Shown: positions 8,842 to 35,204 of the stretch, in pieces
How the letters are laid out: each line of letters starts with the position of its first letter
Numbering within the stretch: position 1 is the first letter of the stretch
Source: a virus
Lineage: Duplodnaviria; Caudoviricetes
Reading direction: 5' to 3' (one strand)
Length of the DNA: 57,400 bases
Virus record (IMG/VR): IMGVR_UViG_3300018432_000015
Location: 1-57,400 of that record
The notes under the pieces: model-generated
Seen by the model: only the letters and a program-made list of their open reading frames with translations
Told to the model about the DNA's origin: nothing
The model's database searches: none
Program-made: the position numbers and the translations under genes

Positions 8842-8903
8842 GCCGAAACGCTGCTCGGGCGGCGTTCGCGGGACATTACCTACCCGCGCTGATGAGGCAG
8901 GTA
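8842..8903 (+). ncRNA. Type II hammerhead ribozyme
   Basis: GCC-GAAA-stem III (CGCTGC/GCGGCG)-UU-stem I (CGCGGG/CCCGCG)-CUGAUGA-GGC; loop I TACCT pairs with 3' AGGTA. Confidence 0.9.
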
Positions 8904-8931
8904 CCTCGCTGAACCACAAGGACTCCGAATC

Positions 8932-9459
8932 ATGGCCAAAGCCACCCCGACCGCTCCCGTCGCTCCTCGCGCCCCGTCGCCCGTCTCCGCGCCCGTCGCC
9001 GGCCAAGCGCCGTCTGCCCGACCCGGCACGACCGAGCTGAAGGCAAAGAAGGAGAAAATCGTTCGCGTGACTCACCCGGCTCTCTCGCCCGACGCTGAAG
9101 GCAAGCCGACGGTCCAGCTCGAAGCGATCCCGCAGGACTTCGACGCGAAGCTGCACAAGCCGATCCGCCGGAAGGACCTGAAGGACGAAACGCTCCACTT
9201 CGATCTGCAAATTCAACGGCTCGAGAAGAAAATCACGGACCTGCGCCGCCAGAAGGAAGAGTCGAAGCAGCTCGGCTCCGTGAAGGACCGCGCTTCGGCC
9301 AAGAAGCTTCTGGCTCTCCAGAAGCGGATGGACGAGGTCACGAAAACGCTCGAGGCTTCGGGCACGGACGTCACCGCGCTGCTCGCCATGCTGAAGGCGA
9401 AGCAGAGCGAGAAGGCCGTCGAGCCGACCGCCACCGACGCGACCACGCCCGCCGCCTAG
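8932..9459 (+). CDS. Basic coiled-coil hypothetical protein
   Basis: AAGGA SD; Pro/Ala-rich termini. Confidence 0.75.
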   Translation: MAKATPTAPVAPRAPSPVSAPVAGQAPSARPGTTELKAKKEKIVRVTHPALSPDAEGKPTVQLEAIPQDFDAKLHKPIRRKDLKDETLHFDLQIQRLEKKITDLRRQKEESKQLGSVKDRASAKKLLALQKRMDEVTKTLEASGTDVTALLAMLKAKQSEKAVEPTATDATTPAA

Positions 9460-9478
9460 CGCGACACGGATCAACCAC

Positions 9479-9507
9479 CCGCCGCTGGGTTTTTCGACCA
9501 GCGGCGG
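9479..9507 (+). other. 10-bp perfect hairpin (terminator or processing element)
   Basis: CCGCCGCTGG…CCAGCGGCGG, intergenic; no clear U-tract after it. Confidence 0.5.
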
Positions 9508-9546
9508 AGACTTGTTCCGCTTTGCACATCACAACGGAGGGATTCC

Positions 9547-9762
9547 ATGATCACGCGCATAACGATCGAACTGGCCGACGCGAAGTCGGCAAAAGAGTTC
9601 GGCAAAGAGGTGGCCGAATCGCTGGACGGGCTCGCCGCTGCCGTCGCGCAGATGACGACCGACAAGAAGACGGTCACGCTCTCTTGGGACGAGTCGCTCG
9701 ACCCGACGGAGCTCCTCGAGGCGATGACTTCGGCCATCGAGGAGATGGACTGGGAGTTCTAG
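9547..9762 (+). CDS. Acidic hypothetical protein
   Basis: GGAGG SD; Asp/Glu-rich. Confidence 0.7.
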   Translation: MITRITIELADAKSAKEFGKEVAESLDGLAAAVAQMTTDKKTVTLSWDESLDPTELLEAMTSAIEEMDWEF

Positions 9763-9764
9763 TA

Positions 9765-9793
9765 TTGACTCCCGCTCTCTGACTTGATATAAT
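9765..9793 (+). promoter_or_regulatory. sigma70 promoter with extended -10
   Basis: TTGACT-N17-TATAAT with TG before the -10. Confidence 0.85.
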
Positions 9794-9835
9794 AGATCAC
9801 TGGACGGTTCCACTAGCATACTGGAGGGATTCCCG

Positions 9836-10207
9836 ATGGCAGAGCCCATCATGCGCGCGAGCGACTACGCCGCCGCTATCGAAGACCAAGTCACTTTGGT
9901 CCGCTACTATCGGTCTCTCGCGCAAAGTCGCGAGTCGACCGAACGACAGATCGCCGAGTTCCGGCAACGAGCTGCCGAGTTCAACGCTTCGGCGGATCGA
10001 CTCGCGGCACAGCTCAACGACGCGCCCGGCCTCGAAGCCCGCGCGGTCGCAGAGATCAAGCGACTCCGCGAGGGCCAAGGCCTGCTGAAGGTCGAGTCCG
10101 GACTCAAGGCCGTGAACAAGCTGGCCGATCAACTGGCCGACTTGGACCCGGCTGCGCTGGCAGCAGTCATCGCTCAGCTCGAGAAGCTGCAAGGAGGTGC
10201 GAAGTGA
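9836..10207 (+). CDS. Coiled-coil hypothetical protein
   Basis: ATACTGGAGG leader. Confidence 0.7.
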   Translation: MAEPIMRASDYAAAIEDQVTLVRYYRSLAQSRESTERQIAEFRQRAAEFNASADRLAAQLNDAPGLEARAVAEIKRLREGQGLLKVESGLKAVNKLADQLADLDPAALAAVIAQLEKLQGGAK

Positions 10208-10479
10208 AAGACATTTTGATCAGATGCGGCTCCACGAGGTGGGTGATCGACGTCGATCACAACGGCACGGTGTGGTTCGTGTTCAATCGGTCAGCCGCGT
10301 TCGCGATGAGCGAAGATGATGCCGCTGAGATCATTCGCAAGTACGGTCGTCGCTTTCCAAAGATGCGGGCGGAGCCGCGATGGTCTGACGAAGAGCTGGC
10401 AGATGCGCGGCGCAGCGTTGCTGAGTTCGTCGAGCTGTCCCGCGAGCACAACGACTGCGGGCGGGAGGAGCGAGAATGA
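10204..10479 (+). CDS. Hypothetical protein
   Basis: AAGGAGGT SD; GTGA overlap. Confidence 0.7.
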   Translation: MKDILIRCGSTRWVIDVDHNGTVWFVFNRSAAFAMSEDDAAEIIRKYGRRFPKMRAEPRWSDEELADARRSVAEFVELSREHNDCGREERE

Positions 10480-11306
10480 CCGCGCTCGACAAGAAAATGG
10501 ACCGCGTCGTGGTGCCCGGGCTAACCGGCGCCCGCAAAGTCTACGTCCTCAAGCACCTCGGCGACGAGCGCAAGTTCGTTGCCGGGTCCGATTATCAACA
10601 AGTGACGACCAGCGATGAGCTGGCGTCGGCACAGCACTTTGCATCACGACTCGCGGCCAGAGGGTTCACTCTGAACGCGGACAAAGACAAACTGTTTGGC
10701 TTCGTCGCCGCCGAGTGGGATGTCGTCCAGATCGAGCTCGTGCCCGAGGAGCCGAAGATCGAAGTGATCGACGGTCTGATGGTCGAGGACCCGGTCGAGT
10801 GCGCGCGGAAACTGTGCGACCTGCACTTCAAGTACGCGGACCGCGTCGCCGCGTGGGTGCGAAAGGCGACGAACTACGTCGGAGACTACTCGCCGCCGAA
10901 GATCGTCGTCACCGCGCGCCCGCAGATGAACTGGACCGGGCTCTACTCGCCGACGGATCACACGTGTCACTACGTGCTCCCGATGGCGATGCTGAATCTG
11001 GGCCGGCCAATGCAAGACTACGAGGAGACAGTCGCGCACGAGGTGGTGCACGCGTACCAGCGGCTGTTCGTCGGCCAGGACATTAGGTCAGGCCACGGCG
11101 GCGACTTCTACGCCATGATGAGGCACGCCGCCCTGTGGCCGACGAAGACACATACGCACGCGCCGCTGCCGGGCGAGTTCCAGAAGTGCATACTGCTGTT
11201 CAAGAAATTGCAGAAACCTATCGAGCGTCTCGCCGAGGGCGGGCTGCTCGCGTCGCTGCCGTGTCAGATCGTGACAGAAAAACTCAAGCGGAGAGGGATA
11301 CAATGA
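10476..11306 (+). CDS. SprT-like zinc metalloprotease domain protein
   Basis: TVAHEVVH…GHGGDF. Confidence 0.75.
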   Translation: MTALDKKMDRVVVPGLTGARKVYVLKHLGDERKFVAGSDYQQVTTSDELASAQHFASRLAARGFTLNADKDKLFGFVAAEWDVVQIELVPEEPKIEVIDGLMVEDPVECARKLCDLHFKYADRVAAWVRKATNYVGDYSPPKIVVTARPQMNWTGLYSPTDHTCHYVLPMAMLNLGRPMQDYEETVAHEVVHAYQRLFVGQDIRSGHGGDFYAMMRHAALWPTKTHTHAPLPGEFQKCILLFKKLQKPIERLAEGGLLASLPCQIVTEKLKRRGIQ

Positions 11307-11566: not shown

Positions 11567-11754
11567 AACTTCTCAACCCACGATACCTCGGCGACGGTGT
11601 CTACATCACACTGTTGCCCGAGCTCGACAGCGTCATGCTGACGACCGGCCATCATGACGAAATGAATCCACAGTGCGAGAACGTCATCATCTTAGGACAC
11701 GCGGAGTTCAGCAATATGTTGCAATACTTACGAGAGGCAGAGGTGATCAAGTGA
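11563..11754 (+). CDS. Hypothetical protein (YLGDGVY motif)
   Basis: GTGA overlaps at both ends. Confidence 0.65.
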   Translation: MKLLNPRYLGDGVYITLLPELDSVMLTTGHHDEMNPQCENVIILGHAEFSNMLQYLREAEVIK

Positions 11755-12707
11755 AACTCAAATGTAAAGTGGCCGCGCCGGGCGTCGTCGCTCGGTATGC
11801 ACAGGTGAAATTAGATGGTCACTGGGTGAGAGTGTCCCGGGGCGGCGTCGACATCAAGGTCGAGACATCGCACCCGACGGACATCACCGATCAGCTACCA
11901 GAACACATCTACGCAGCGCTATGGGAGAACCTGCCGCGGCACTCGGTCGCGCTCGGCGAGCTGTGGGTCCCCGACAAGCCGGCCAGCTGTGTCAAGACGG
12001 CGCTGAAGGGAAAGTGGCCGGAGCTCCAGATCACGTTCTTTGCGCTCGAGCAAATGGCCCCATCGTCGACTCGGCACATCGAGATCATGCCGCTCGAGGA
12101 AGTGCGACAATGGTTCGATCACTACAAGCTCAACTTCGCGCCGTTCGAGGTCATCGACGCGGTCCCGGTCGAGCTAGGCGAGGGTCAGCTCGAGCACTAC
12201 CGAGCACGGGCTCGCAGCATGGGTATCGAAGGCTGGGTGCTGAAGACTGGCAATCTGACCGGATGGCACAAGCTGAAGTGCGAGAACTCGATCGACGTCG
12301 TCGTCACGGGCGTCAAAGACGCTAAAGACGGTAAGTATCTCGGCCAAGTGGGATCGCTGCTGGTGAGCGTCACCGGCGACGGCGGCTTGAACTGGAACGA
12401 AATCGCGGCGGTGTCCGGGATGACCGACCGCGAGCGACTGAACATCACGGAGAAGTACGACGAGCTCGCGAGCAGCATCATCGGCAAGGTCTGCGAGATC
12501 GAGTACCAGCGCATGGACGCGCAGGGCCGACTAAGACATCCAAGATTCAAGCGATGGCGCGACGACAAGCCGGCCAAAGAGTGCGGCGTGGACCAGGACC
12601 CGGACCTGGAGCGCCGCTACGCGCGAGGCATGCGATTCGTCGAGACCGAGCCGATCAAGTTCATGCAAATCACGCCAGGAGCAGAACATGACGCAGGGCA
12701 TCAATGA
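11751..12707 (+). CDS. ATP-dependent DNA ligase (minimal)
   Basis: KLDG, EGWVLK, WHKLK, RHPRFKRWRDDK. Confidence 0.9.
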   Translation: MKLKCKVAAPGVVARYAQVKLDGHWVRVSRGGVDIKVETSHPTDITDQLPEHIYAALWENLPRHSVALGELWVPDKPASCVKTALKGKWPELQITFFALEQMAPSSTRHIEIMPLEEVRQWFDHYKLNFAPFEVIDAVPVELGEGQLEHYRARARSMGIEGWVLKTGNLTGWHKLKCENSIDVVVTGVKDAKDGKYLGQVGSLLVSVTGDGGLNWNEIAAVSGMTDRERLNITEKYDELASSIIGKVCEIEYQRMDAQGRLRHPRFKRWRDDKPAKECGVDQDPDLERRYARGMRFVETEPIKFMQITPGAEHDAGHQ

Positions 12708-17422: not shown

Positions 17423-17682
17423 CAGTCTGTTGGTACGATTGGACTTATGTTAATCGGGTTTTGTTCCATCTGGGCCGGAGTTAGAAGGTGATATATAAGA
17501 GTCAACTGTGATTTTCATTAATTATATTCCGTTTTTTGTATTAAACATTAATGAAAATAGGGGTTGGTCTTATATAATCCTTTGGCCAACTCCGGCAAAC
17601 GTGGGTACAAAACCCGAAAGCTCGGTCGCAAAAATTTCGATCAAGTTCACTCTCATCGCTCCCAAGTTCACTCTCGTCGTTC
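17423..17682. other. AT-rich non-coding region with iteron-like repeats (candidate origin)
   Basis: AT-rich tract ~17490-17580; near-perfect 20-mer direct repeat at 17642-17661 and 17663-17682. Confidence 0.5.
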
Positions 17683-33402: not shown

Positions 33403-33933
33403 ATGCACATCGAAGACATCGTGAAAGCTTTTGTCATCTATGTTGCACCGTTCGTCATCTGGACGATGACGATGCTTGCGCAGGTGCCGGTGCTCGAGCC
33501 TGGACTCGTCCAATTGATCGGCAACGGTCTCACGATCGTTGTGCTCGCTTGGTACGTCGTGTACGACGTGCGGACGCGGACGCCGGCGATGATCACGGCT
33601 TTCAAGGAAGAGCAGGCTGAAGCGCGCAAGATGGCGACTGCTCAGCTGATGGCTTTCGCGATCGAGCAGAACGCGCAACGAGCAGCTGCCGAGGCAGCAT
33701 TGGACAAAGTGCGCGCTCTGTTCATGCAAGAGCAAGCACAGATGCGCGAAGCGTTCTCTCGAGAGCATTCGAAGATTCACGAGCACTACCGCGAAGAGCT
33801 AGCCGACTATCGCGCCATGGTCAGCGACCTCATGGGCAAATTTCGCGACGCGGTCCACGACGTACGCGGCGTGGGTCAGCAAGTGGTCGGCGCGGCCGAT
33901 CTAGCGGTGAAAGAAGTGTCCAAGAAGCTATGA
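33403..33933 (+). CDS. Membrane protein with coiled coil (holin-like)
   Basis: Two N-terminal hydrophobic segments; just upstream of terL. Confidence 0.55.
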   Translation: MHIEDIVKAFVIYVAPFVIWTMTMLAQVPVLEPGLVQLIGNGLTIVVLAWYVVYDVRTRTPAMITAFKEEQAEARKMATAQLMAFAIEQNAQRAAAEAALDKVRALFMQEQAQMREAFSREHSKIHEHYREELADYRAMVSDLMGKFRDAVHDVRGVGQQVVGAADLAVKEVSKKL

Positions 33934-35204
33934 TGCCGCTCACGCCAGCATGGTTCCCGCTCAAGCCGCATCCGGTGCAGTCGGATTTGTGGCGCACGAG
34001 CTCGCGCTTTGTGGCAGTATATGCGGGCCGTGGTTCCGGCAAGACGCTTCTGGCTCGTCGACGAGTGGTGCGCTTCCTCAACGTCAAAAAACCTTGGCCG
34101 GACCCGATCTACTTCTACGCGCTTCCAACGCGCGACCAAGCGCGACGCGTCGCGTGGCCGGCGCTGAAGGCTCTCGTGCCCAAGCATTGGCTGACAACGG
34201 AACCGAGCGAGAGCGAGATGAGCATCTCGACGATCTTCGGCTCAAAGCTCTACCTTGTCGGGATGGACAAGCCGCAGCGCATCGAAGGCAACCAATGGGA
34301 TGGAGGCGTCATCGATGAATCTTCTGATCATAAGCCAAAGTCATTCGATCTCAGTGTACGACCGGCGCTCTCTCATCGCAATGGTTGGTGCTGGCGCATT
34401 GGTGTCCCAAAAAGAACTGGCTGCGGCGCGATTGACTTTAAAGAGTGGTGCCTTGACCGAGCAGAAGCAACTTTCACGTGGCCGAGCGAAGACATCCTGC
34501 CGCCCGAAGAGATTGCTGAAGCGCAGGCGCAGCTAGACCCGCGGGATTTCAACGAGCAGTATCGAGCGAGTTGGGAGACTGCATCCGGTCTCGTGTTCCA
34601 CGCGTTCTCGGATGTCTTGAACGTCAACCCGAAAGTACAATACAACCGAGACTTGCCGCTTCTCGTCGGGTCGGACTTCAATGTCGATCCTATGGCGTGG
34701 GTGGTCGCGCAGCAGTTCGGCCCTGAGATGCATGTGCTCGATGAGCTCTTCCTTCGCAACTCGAATACGCAGCTCGCTCTCGCGGAATTGCACCGTCGCT
34801 ACGCGAGTCATACTGCGGGCGTTCGCTTTTACGGCGATGCAACAGGACGCGCGCGCAAGACTTCCGCGACGGAATCCGACTACGTGCAGATCAGAAACTT
34901 CGCCGGCTTCAAAGATTCGAAGGTGTTCTATCCGCGGGCGAACCCGGCGGTGGCCGACCGATTCGCCGCAACCAATGCGATGTTCTGCAACGCAGCTGGC
35001 GTGCATCGTTTGTACATTCATCCGCGATGCAAGAATTTGATCAAAGACCTCACCAATCGGGCGTACAAGCCTGGGAGCAACGAGCCCGATGATCATGGCG
35101 ACGTCGGTCACATAACGGACGCGCTTGGTTACCTGATATATTGGCTGCACCCGCTGCACGTGAAGTTGTTCGACAAGGCGCCCGAAGTCAGGATGATTCA
35201 GTAA
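33930..35204 (+). CDS. terL: Terminase large subunit
   Basis: AGRGSGKT, VIDE, GSDFN, HITDALGY. Confidence 0.95.
   Translation: MMPLTPAWFPLKPHPVQSDLWRTSSRFVAVYAGRGSGKTLLARRRVVRFLNVKKPWPDPIYFYALPTRDQARRVAWPALKALVPKHWLTTEPSESEMSISTIFGSKLYLVGMDKPQRIEGNQWDGGVIDESSDHKPKSFDLSVRPALSHRNGWCWRIGVPKRTGCGAIDFKEWCLDRAEATFTWPSEDILPPEEIAEAQAQLDPRDFNEQYRASWETASGLVFHAFSDVLNVNPKVQYNRDLPLLVGSDFNVDPMAWVVAQQFGPEMHVLDELFLRNSNTQLALAELHRRYASHTAGVRFYGDATGRARKTSATESDYVQIRNFAGFKDSKVFYPRANPAVADRFAATNAMFCNAAGVHRLYIHPRCKNLIKDLTNRAYKPGSNEPDDHGDVGHITDALGYLIYWLHPLHVKLFDKAPEVRMIQ

Follow-up and report, generated by a model that had tools for sequence, protein, structure and literature searches.

Type II hammerhead ribozymes in which loop I pairs with the 3' tail to form a pseudoknot cleave fast, and mutants of the pseudoknot are rescued by compensation, according to the accessible part of PMC3088659. 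The same part of that paper (Perreault et al. 2011) describes hammerhead arrays that flank genes in prophages, for which a role in the processing of long phage transcripts was proposed. It also contains the idea that phage hammerheads create independent mRNA 5' ends, which the accessible part of a 2019 review leaves open, the biological role of hammerheads being considered there as still unresolved (PMC6765202). Activity in cells has been documented for three type II hammerheads of Desulfovibrio vulgaris, which cleave in vivo as judged by cyPhyRNA-seq (PMC8782182, partial text), and GUU is included among the active NUH sites (PMC3138052, partial text).

The locus described here, at positions 8842-8903 of the + strand of a phage record (the window, i.e., the whole stretch of 57,400 nt that was analysed), is a genuine type II hammerhead of an already described kind, for which self-cleavage is predicted from its sequence. 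Like the members of RF02276, as described in the accessible part of PMC3088659, it combines the core with an open stem II, with closed stems I and III, and with a pseudoknot of 4 bp or more; it differs in that H17 is U rather than the usual C, and in that the pseudoknot is UACCU/AGGUA rather than the GGCU-like/AGCC of the Rfam consensus, the difference having arisen via compensatory changes. With the gene-flanking hammerheads of prophages (PMC3088659, partial text) it shares an intergenic placement in a phage operon; its relatives carry arrays, whereas the window holds a single copy. The D. vulgaris hammerheads are of the same type and also lie near genes of phage origin, and they show that predicted motifs can be active in cells (PMC8782182, partial text). 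However, in that case RNA ends were mapped directly in a cultured bacterium, at chromosomal or prophage loci, whereas the activity of the element described here is a prediction. Two features are specific to the phage group of the window: in 6 of 10 loci the ribozyme is tied to one conserved gene family, and in two relatives a promoter takes its place. A functional analogy might also be drawn with the RiboJ-type insulators, which are engineered elements placed between promoter and ribosome-binding site and go back to a satellite-RNA ribozyme with a different topology; these likewise strip upstream RNA and leave a 5' hairpin before the ribosome-binding site. The window thus adds one well-formed type II hammerhead to the thousands known in phages, and the presence of a hammerhead in six loci and of a strong promoter in two lends circumstantial support to the idea of an independent 5' end.

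The window is a tailed phage, an IMG/VR record of 57,400 bases that represents an estimated ~91% complete genome, with a G+C content of 59% and nearly all plausible genes on the + strand. PHROG matches were obtained for a DNA polymerase (5658-7871), an ATP-dependent ligase (11673-12707), and the large terminase (33930-35204), as well as for thymidylate synthases, a portal protein, and a tape-measure protein. No GenBank phage matched positions 8000-10500 at the DNA level, and the best GenBank match of the polymerase was an uncultured Caudoviricetes record with 37.6% identity. The genes that flank the ribozyme, putatively early ones according to the first-pass annotation, sit in the replication module, with the DNA polymerase on one side and the ligase on the other.

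All parts of a type II hammerhead can be read in the sequence at 8842-8903 (+), within the inspected segment 8700-9060. Stem II is formed by GCC at 8842-8844, whose last base, C8844, is C11.1, and GGC at 8896-8898, whose first base, G8896, is G10.1, so that the C11.1-G10.1 pair is included in its 3 bp. The 5' strand continues with GAA at 8845-8847 (G12, A13, and A14 of the core) and with A15.1, which together match the GAAA of the Rfam consensus (8845-8848). The stem III hairpin (8848-8865) has 7 bp and is present in both the minimum-free-energy (MFE) and the centroid folds; it comprises the A15.1 (8848)-U16.1 (8865) pair and the pairing of 8849-8854 with 8859-8864, one pair of which is G-U, closed by the loop UCGG (8855-8858). 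H17 is U8866, which makes the triplet GUU and places the predicted cut between 8866 and 8867. Sequence and folding both indicate a 6-bp stem I hairpin at 8867-8888, in which CGCGGG (8867-8872) pairs with CCCGCG (8883-8888) around a 10-nt loop (8873-8882). It is followed by CUGAUGA at 8889-8895, the core bases C3, U4, G5, A6, U7, G8, and A9, which are also matched by Rfam. Finally, UACCU of loop I (8877-8881) can form a 5-bp pseudoknot with AGGUA of the 3' tail (8899-8903). Both core strands, the NUH rule (H17 is not G), the G10.1-C11.1 pair, the open stem II, the loop-closed stems I and III, a pseudoknot of at least 4 bp, and covarying helices are thus found; the one feature of family members that is missing is the Rfam gathering score, which is an annotation threshold and not a structural feature. 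The coordinates that the first-pass annotation had given agree with this reading throughout. Its claim of a complete type II hammerhead is likewise upheld, since core, topology, and pseudoknot all fit and covariation is seen across the family. It had also regarded the loop I-tail pseudoknot as typical of the type, which is consistent with the accessible part of PMC3088659 and with the 90 of 112 listed parsed viral examples in which this pseudoknot has at least 4 bp.

It appears probable that the element acts in cis, cutting after U8866 and thereby giving the P0002 gene a separate mRNA in which it is the 5'-proximal cistron. After transcription, stems III and I would form hairpins, the 3-bp stem II would close the core, and the pseudoknot, in which loop I and the 3' tail form 5 bp, would set stems I and II side by side, whereupon the RNA would cut itself after U8866. 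The upstream fragment would retain its stop codon, and its 3' end would be the stem III hairpin, bearing a 2',3'-cyclic phosphate. On the other side of the cut, the RNA would open with the first base of the stem I hairpin, which would have a 5'-OH and lie 65 nt 5' of the ATG; this fragment would include the Shine-Dalgarno site and the 175-aa gene, which would be uncoupled from the upstream gene in both stability and translation. Relatives might reach the same end with either a hammerhead or a promoter in the slot before the P0002 gene. The steps of this mechanism are taken from hammerhead chemistry, and its purpose from the comparative context. Cutting of a polycistron to give a 5'-OH end, as the first-pass annotation had proposed, is the standard inference for such elements and fits the conserved placement upstream of the gene family. 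Such a 5'-OH hairpin end may affect the stability of the mRNA.

No terminator-like site was called in a scan of the + strand from 7700 to 10400, and promoter-like sites lie upstream; therefore, the P0001 and P0002 ORFs are probably co-transcribed. Two such sites, both recognised by match to the consensus only, are found on the + strand 5' of three small ORFs (8108-8136, 9/12) and 5' of P0001 (8394-8421, 10/12), and the latter is a candidate start for the transcript that the ribozyme would cut. The highest-scoring promoter-like site of the region lies further downstream, at 9765-9793 (+), 5' of the gene at 9836; it consists of TTGACT, a 17-nt spacer, and TATAAT with an extended -10 TG (11/12). 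A new transcription unit probably starts there, two genes past the ribozyme. An 8-bp hairpin that lacks a U tract can be read at 9481-9505 (+), 22 nt past the P0002 stop; it was not called by the terminator scan, and it is a possible 3' end or stabiliser for the processed mRNA.

The ribozyme lies between two ORFs of the + strand. The upstream one, P0001 (8487-8840), encodes 117 aa, has a coding-like G+C pattern (0.58/0.46/0.66 by codon position) with GGAG upstream, and has a TAA stop codon (8838-8840) that a single base separates from stem II. The downstream one, P0002 (8932-9459), is a conserved gene of 175 aa with a GC3 of 0.85, which starts with ATG at 8932 and is preceded by a Shine-Dalgarno-like AAGGA at 8918-8922. 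The 91-nt gap between them is filled by the ribozyme. The same geometry is common among the 116 aligned viral relatives discussed below: in 78 of them, the upstream ORF has a stop codon whose end is between -2 and +1 nt from the base with which stem II opens, and in 92 the next start codon lies 10-39 nt 3' of stem II. The ribozyme thus takes up the entire space between the genes, with a flush stop before it and a close start after it. Neither P0001 nor P0002 matched a PHROG or Pfam family. The three consecutive small ORFs at 8178-8384, 8487-8840, and 8932-9459 show, by eye, a similar G-x-D-V-x-x-L ending after a helical region; a relationship of P0001 and P0002 as paralogues was considered but is not supported, their BLASTP E value of 0.032 being not significant.

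This tight spacing raises a different possibility, namely, that the ribozyme is active but that its cleavage depends on translation of the upstream ORF. The ribosome reaches downstream of its A site. Because stem II begins one base past the stop codon, a terminating ribosome would cover the 5' strand of stem II, the GAA of the core, and the start of stem III, and the core would thereby be unfolded. The position of the TAA at 8838-8840 and the flush stop in 78 of 116 relatives speak for such gating, and in its fullest form it would make hammerhead and promoter interchangeable devices by which this phage group provides one conserved replication-module gene with a 5' end, with cleavage of the hammerhead gated by translation of the upstream gene. 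The ribozyme would then be a translation-sensing switch and not a constitutive cutter. However, genome compaction explains the tight spacing equally well, since the 3' side is minimal too (10-39 nt in 92 of 116), and 38 of the 116 relatives do not have a flush stop. We therefore regard translational gating, including its combination with the exchange of hammerhead and promoter, as unlikely, though as the strongest of the competitors to simple cis-cleavage. In the literature covered, mostly not at full-text depth, nothing was found on stop-codon placement or on the alternation of promoter and hammerhead.

Somewhat less likely again is that the element does not cleave itself, being either an inactive relic or a purely structural element that serves as an RNase target, a pause site or attenuator, or a protection of the mRNA end. 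Three features are in keeping with such a state: the uncommon U at H17, the Rfam score below threshold, and an alternative hairpin in the MFE fold. As for the first, the earlier remark that GUU is less common than GUC holds, with 5 GUU and 96 GUC in the 116 aligned relatives, in which the base at H17 is C 104 times and U and A 5 times each; among 112 listed parsed examples, GUC, GUA, and GUU occur 95, 10, and 3 times, respectively. Because H17 is U in only 5 of the 116, cleavage may be slower than with GUC. Nonetheless, GUU is rare but recurrent among these relatives, and it is a cleavable triplet (PMC3138052, partial text). The ribozyme of L145, which closely resembles that of the window in loop and tail but has the triplet GUC, forms with the latter a natural pair for gauging the effect of the cleavage triplet in native context.

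As for the score, the first-pass annotation had pointed to the Hammerhead_II covariance model, and the outcome was mixed: a full-length match was obtained, whereas the gathering score was not reached (35.1 vs. 37 bits). The RF02276 match extends over 8841-8906 and covers model positions 1-66 of 66, with 35.1 bits, i.e., 1.9 bits under the cut-off, and E values of 6.1e-6 when a 181-nt stretch is considered and 0.0019 when both strands of the entire window are searched with all 4227 families. The window therefore shows no Rfam entry at the gathering threshold. The shortfall is plausibly due to U at H17 and to the differing pseudoknot sequence. No other ribozyme family of Rfam was found in the window at E <= 1.

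As for the fold, thermodynamic folding of the ribozyme, by a method that considers nested pairs only and leaves pseudoknots outside, gave a z score of -0.14, with 85 of 200 shuffles equally stable. The MFE fold keeps stems III and I and has a GAGG/CCUC hairpin in place of stem II, and this hairpin would tie up G8 and A9 together with the tail of the pseudoknot. The CCUC involved lies directly 3' of the pseudoknot (8904-8907, +) and can pair with GAGG at 8894-8897 (G8-A9-G10.1-G10.2) to give this alternative, inactive hairpin. CCUY is present directly 3' of the pseudoknot in 20 of 116 relatives, compared with 6.2 +/- 2.1 in shuffles, and the hammerheads that bear it may form a sub-class that has a second, alternative conformer. 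Against a relic or a purely structural element, however, stand the intact invariant core and a pseudoknot that is compensated relative to those of relatives, both of which decay would strike first, and the terminator scan, which called no + strand site here.

The relatives were collected by scanning IMG/VR contigs with the pattern GCCGAAA-N30-60-CTGAYGAGGCA, which returned at least 126 stretches. Among 137 matches listed, a strict script recognised 112 distinct type II hammerheads and rejected 18, which by eye consist of approximately 10 hammerheads with a stem mismatch, most of them regained by the covariance model R1, and 8 chance-like matches. Model R1, which has the window in its seed, was run on 100 of 136 sources, duplicates and L118-L135 being set aside, and gave 116 matches in these 100 sources, which make up alignment A3; this alignment is fitted to the R1 model, and the weak rows L039 and L022 are included in its counts. 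With the pseudoknot added, 91.8% of the A3 cells are paired, compared with 64.4% in shuffles and 27-41% with slid partners. Changes on both sides are seen in 18 of 22 pairs, and the observed score was reached by none of 500 shuffles. The individual helices are paired in 99.7% (stem II), 98.2% (stem III), and 99.4% (stem I) of cells. Stem II exchanges CG for UA in 7 of 116 rows, and both-side changes occur in 6 of 7 pairs of stem III, 6 of 6 pairs of stem I, and 5 of 6 pairs of the pseudoknot, where the window is in the family register. In the look-alikes L018 and L034, whose stem I is identical to that of the window, two pseudoknot pairs are compensatorily exchanged with respect to the window.

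Several of these sources carry more than one hammerhead. By R1 match counts, L023 has four and L070, L115, L056, and L040 have three each; those of L115 are spaced 346-444 nt start to start. Four type II hammerheads lie within 1.7 kb of G002 (L143, 858-2530), and G003 has two. Two of the three hammerheads of L070 (121-196 and 1259-1333, - strand) have CCGAUGA for CUGAUGA, i.e., a change of the normally invariant U4, and still score 64 and 58 bits.

The gene that the ribozyme would place at an mRNA 5' end belongs to a small family. P0002 has only three close homologues, none of them named, in a large protein database, and P0003 is an 83%-identical homologue. Its predicted structure (AlphaFold) comprises a disordered N-terminus and three helices, with a mean pLDDT of 68.7; the ESM Atlas gave no usable feature match for P0002, and all structure matches had a TM score of <= 0.26. 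Close relatives were found for neither flanking protein in viral contigs nor for P0002 alone in metagenome contigs, and tblastn of P0002 against GenBank phages gave no match. Relatives were reached only via the polymerase and the family alignment A4. In related phages, diverged P0002 homologues usually lie between the polymerase and the SprT-like gene plus ligase, so that the order polymerase, P0002-family gene, SprT-like gene, ligase is conserved. In L004, a homologue with 36% identity (E 3e-26) directly follows a hammerhead. The polymerase match of L005 (6001-8979) and L006 (6001-8664) falls into two pieces that are ~730-970 nt apart, which suggests that this gene holds an insertion, e.g., an intein, an intron, or a homing-endonuclease gene.

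Ten distinct loci of the gene family were compared: the window, G001, G002, G003, G005, L136, L137, L138, L142, and L145. In six of them (the window, L145, L136, L138, G002, and G003), a type II hammerhead ends at most ~25 nt from the start codon. Two of the four loci that lack an upstream hammerhead (L137 and G001/L002) have instead a sigma-70-like promoter at this place, with an 11/12 match and an extended -10. In L006, the region 5' of the family gene yielded no hammerhead and no adjacent promoter, and the spacer matched no Rfam family (best E 1.6). A search with R1 and filters off found no hammerhead in L002, L003, L005, and L006 (best 12.9 bits), and in L142 the nearest upstream hammerhead is ~900 nt away. 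The absence of an upstream hammerhead from 4 of 10 loci means that the gene does not need one. The alternation of hammerhead and promoter before the same gene suggests that a dedicated 5' end for this cistron has been selected.

In four loci, a hammerhead follows the family gene; those of G003, L136, and L142 start at its stop codon, and that of G002 starts 63 nt further on. In G003 and L136, and more loosely in G002, the same gene is therefore flanked by hammerheads on both sides, and the two copies of L136 are near-identical. Such an arrangement is reminiscent of a mobile or rearranging cassette, in which hammerhead-flanked genes would be excised, ligated, or circularised as RNA or shuffled between phages; ligation or circularisation is raised as a possibility in the accessible part of PMC3088659, where spliced or circular products were, however, not detected. 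The window holds a single hammerhead, and therefore there is no flanked unit here, and the order of polymerase, P0002-family gene, SprT-like gene, and ligase is conserved. A cassette is thus a highly improbable account of this locus, and processing of the mRNA in cis remains the preferred one.

How far the match could be a product of composition was addressed with a descriptor of the type II hammerhead (core, 3-bp stem II, and a minimum of 5 bp in both stem I and stem III) and with a second covariance model, R2, whose seeds were 9 other viral hammerheads, the window being left out. The descriptor matched the window at this one site, and it had no match in any of 300 dinucleotide-preserving shuffles. 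R2 matched the window at 8838-8911 with 64.0 bits (E 2.8e-16, a rough value), the runner-up among the 26 matches listed having 11.1 bits. It should be noted that 18 core bases match R2 by design because the seeds were collected by a pattern taken from the window and L004, whereas the helices and helix lengths of R2 were not dictated by that pattern. Chance resemblance in G+C-rich intergenic DNA, to which a folding energy no better than that of shuffles and a score under the Rfam gathering score might point, is thus extremely unlikely in view of the 0 of 300 shuffles, the distance between 64.0 and 11.1 bits, and the five other loci of the gene family that have a hammerhead in the same place.

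Elsewhere in the window, an A+T-rich island at 17493-17575 (24% G+C compared with 59% for the genome) contains an 11-base inverted repeat, TTTTCATTAAT / ATTAATGAAAA, inside a second inverted pair, TATATAAGA / TCTTATATA. The only Rfam match there, of mir-3618 to the A+T-rich hairpin, was dismissed as spurious. Possible roles of the island are those of an operator, an origin, or a cluster of promoters.
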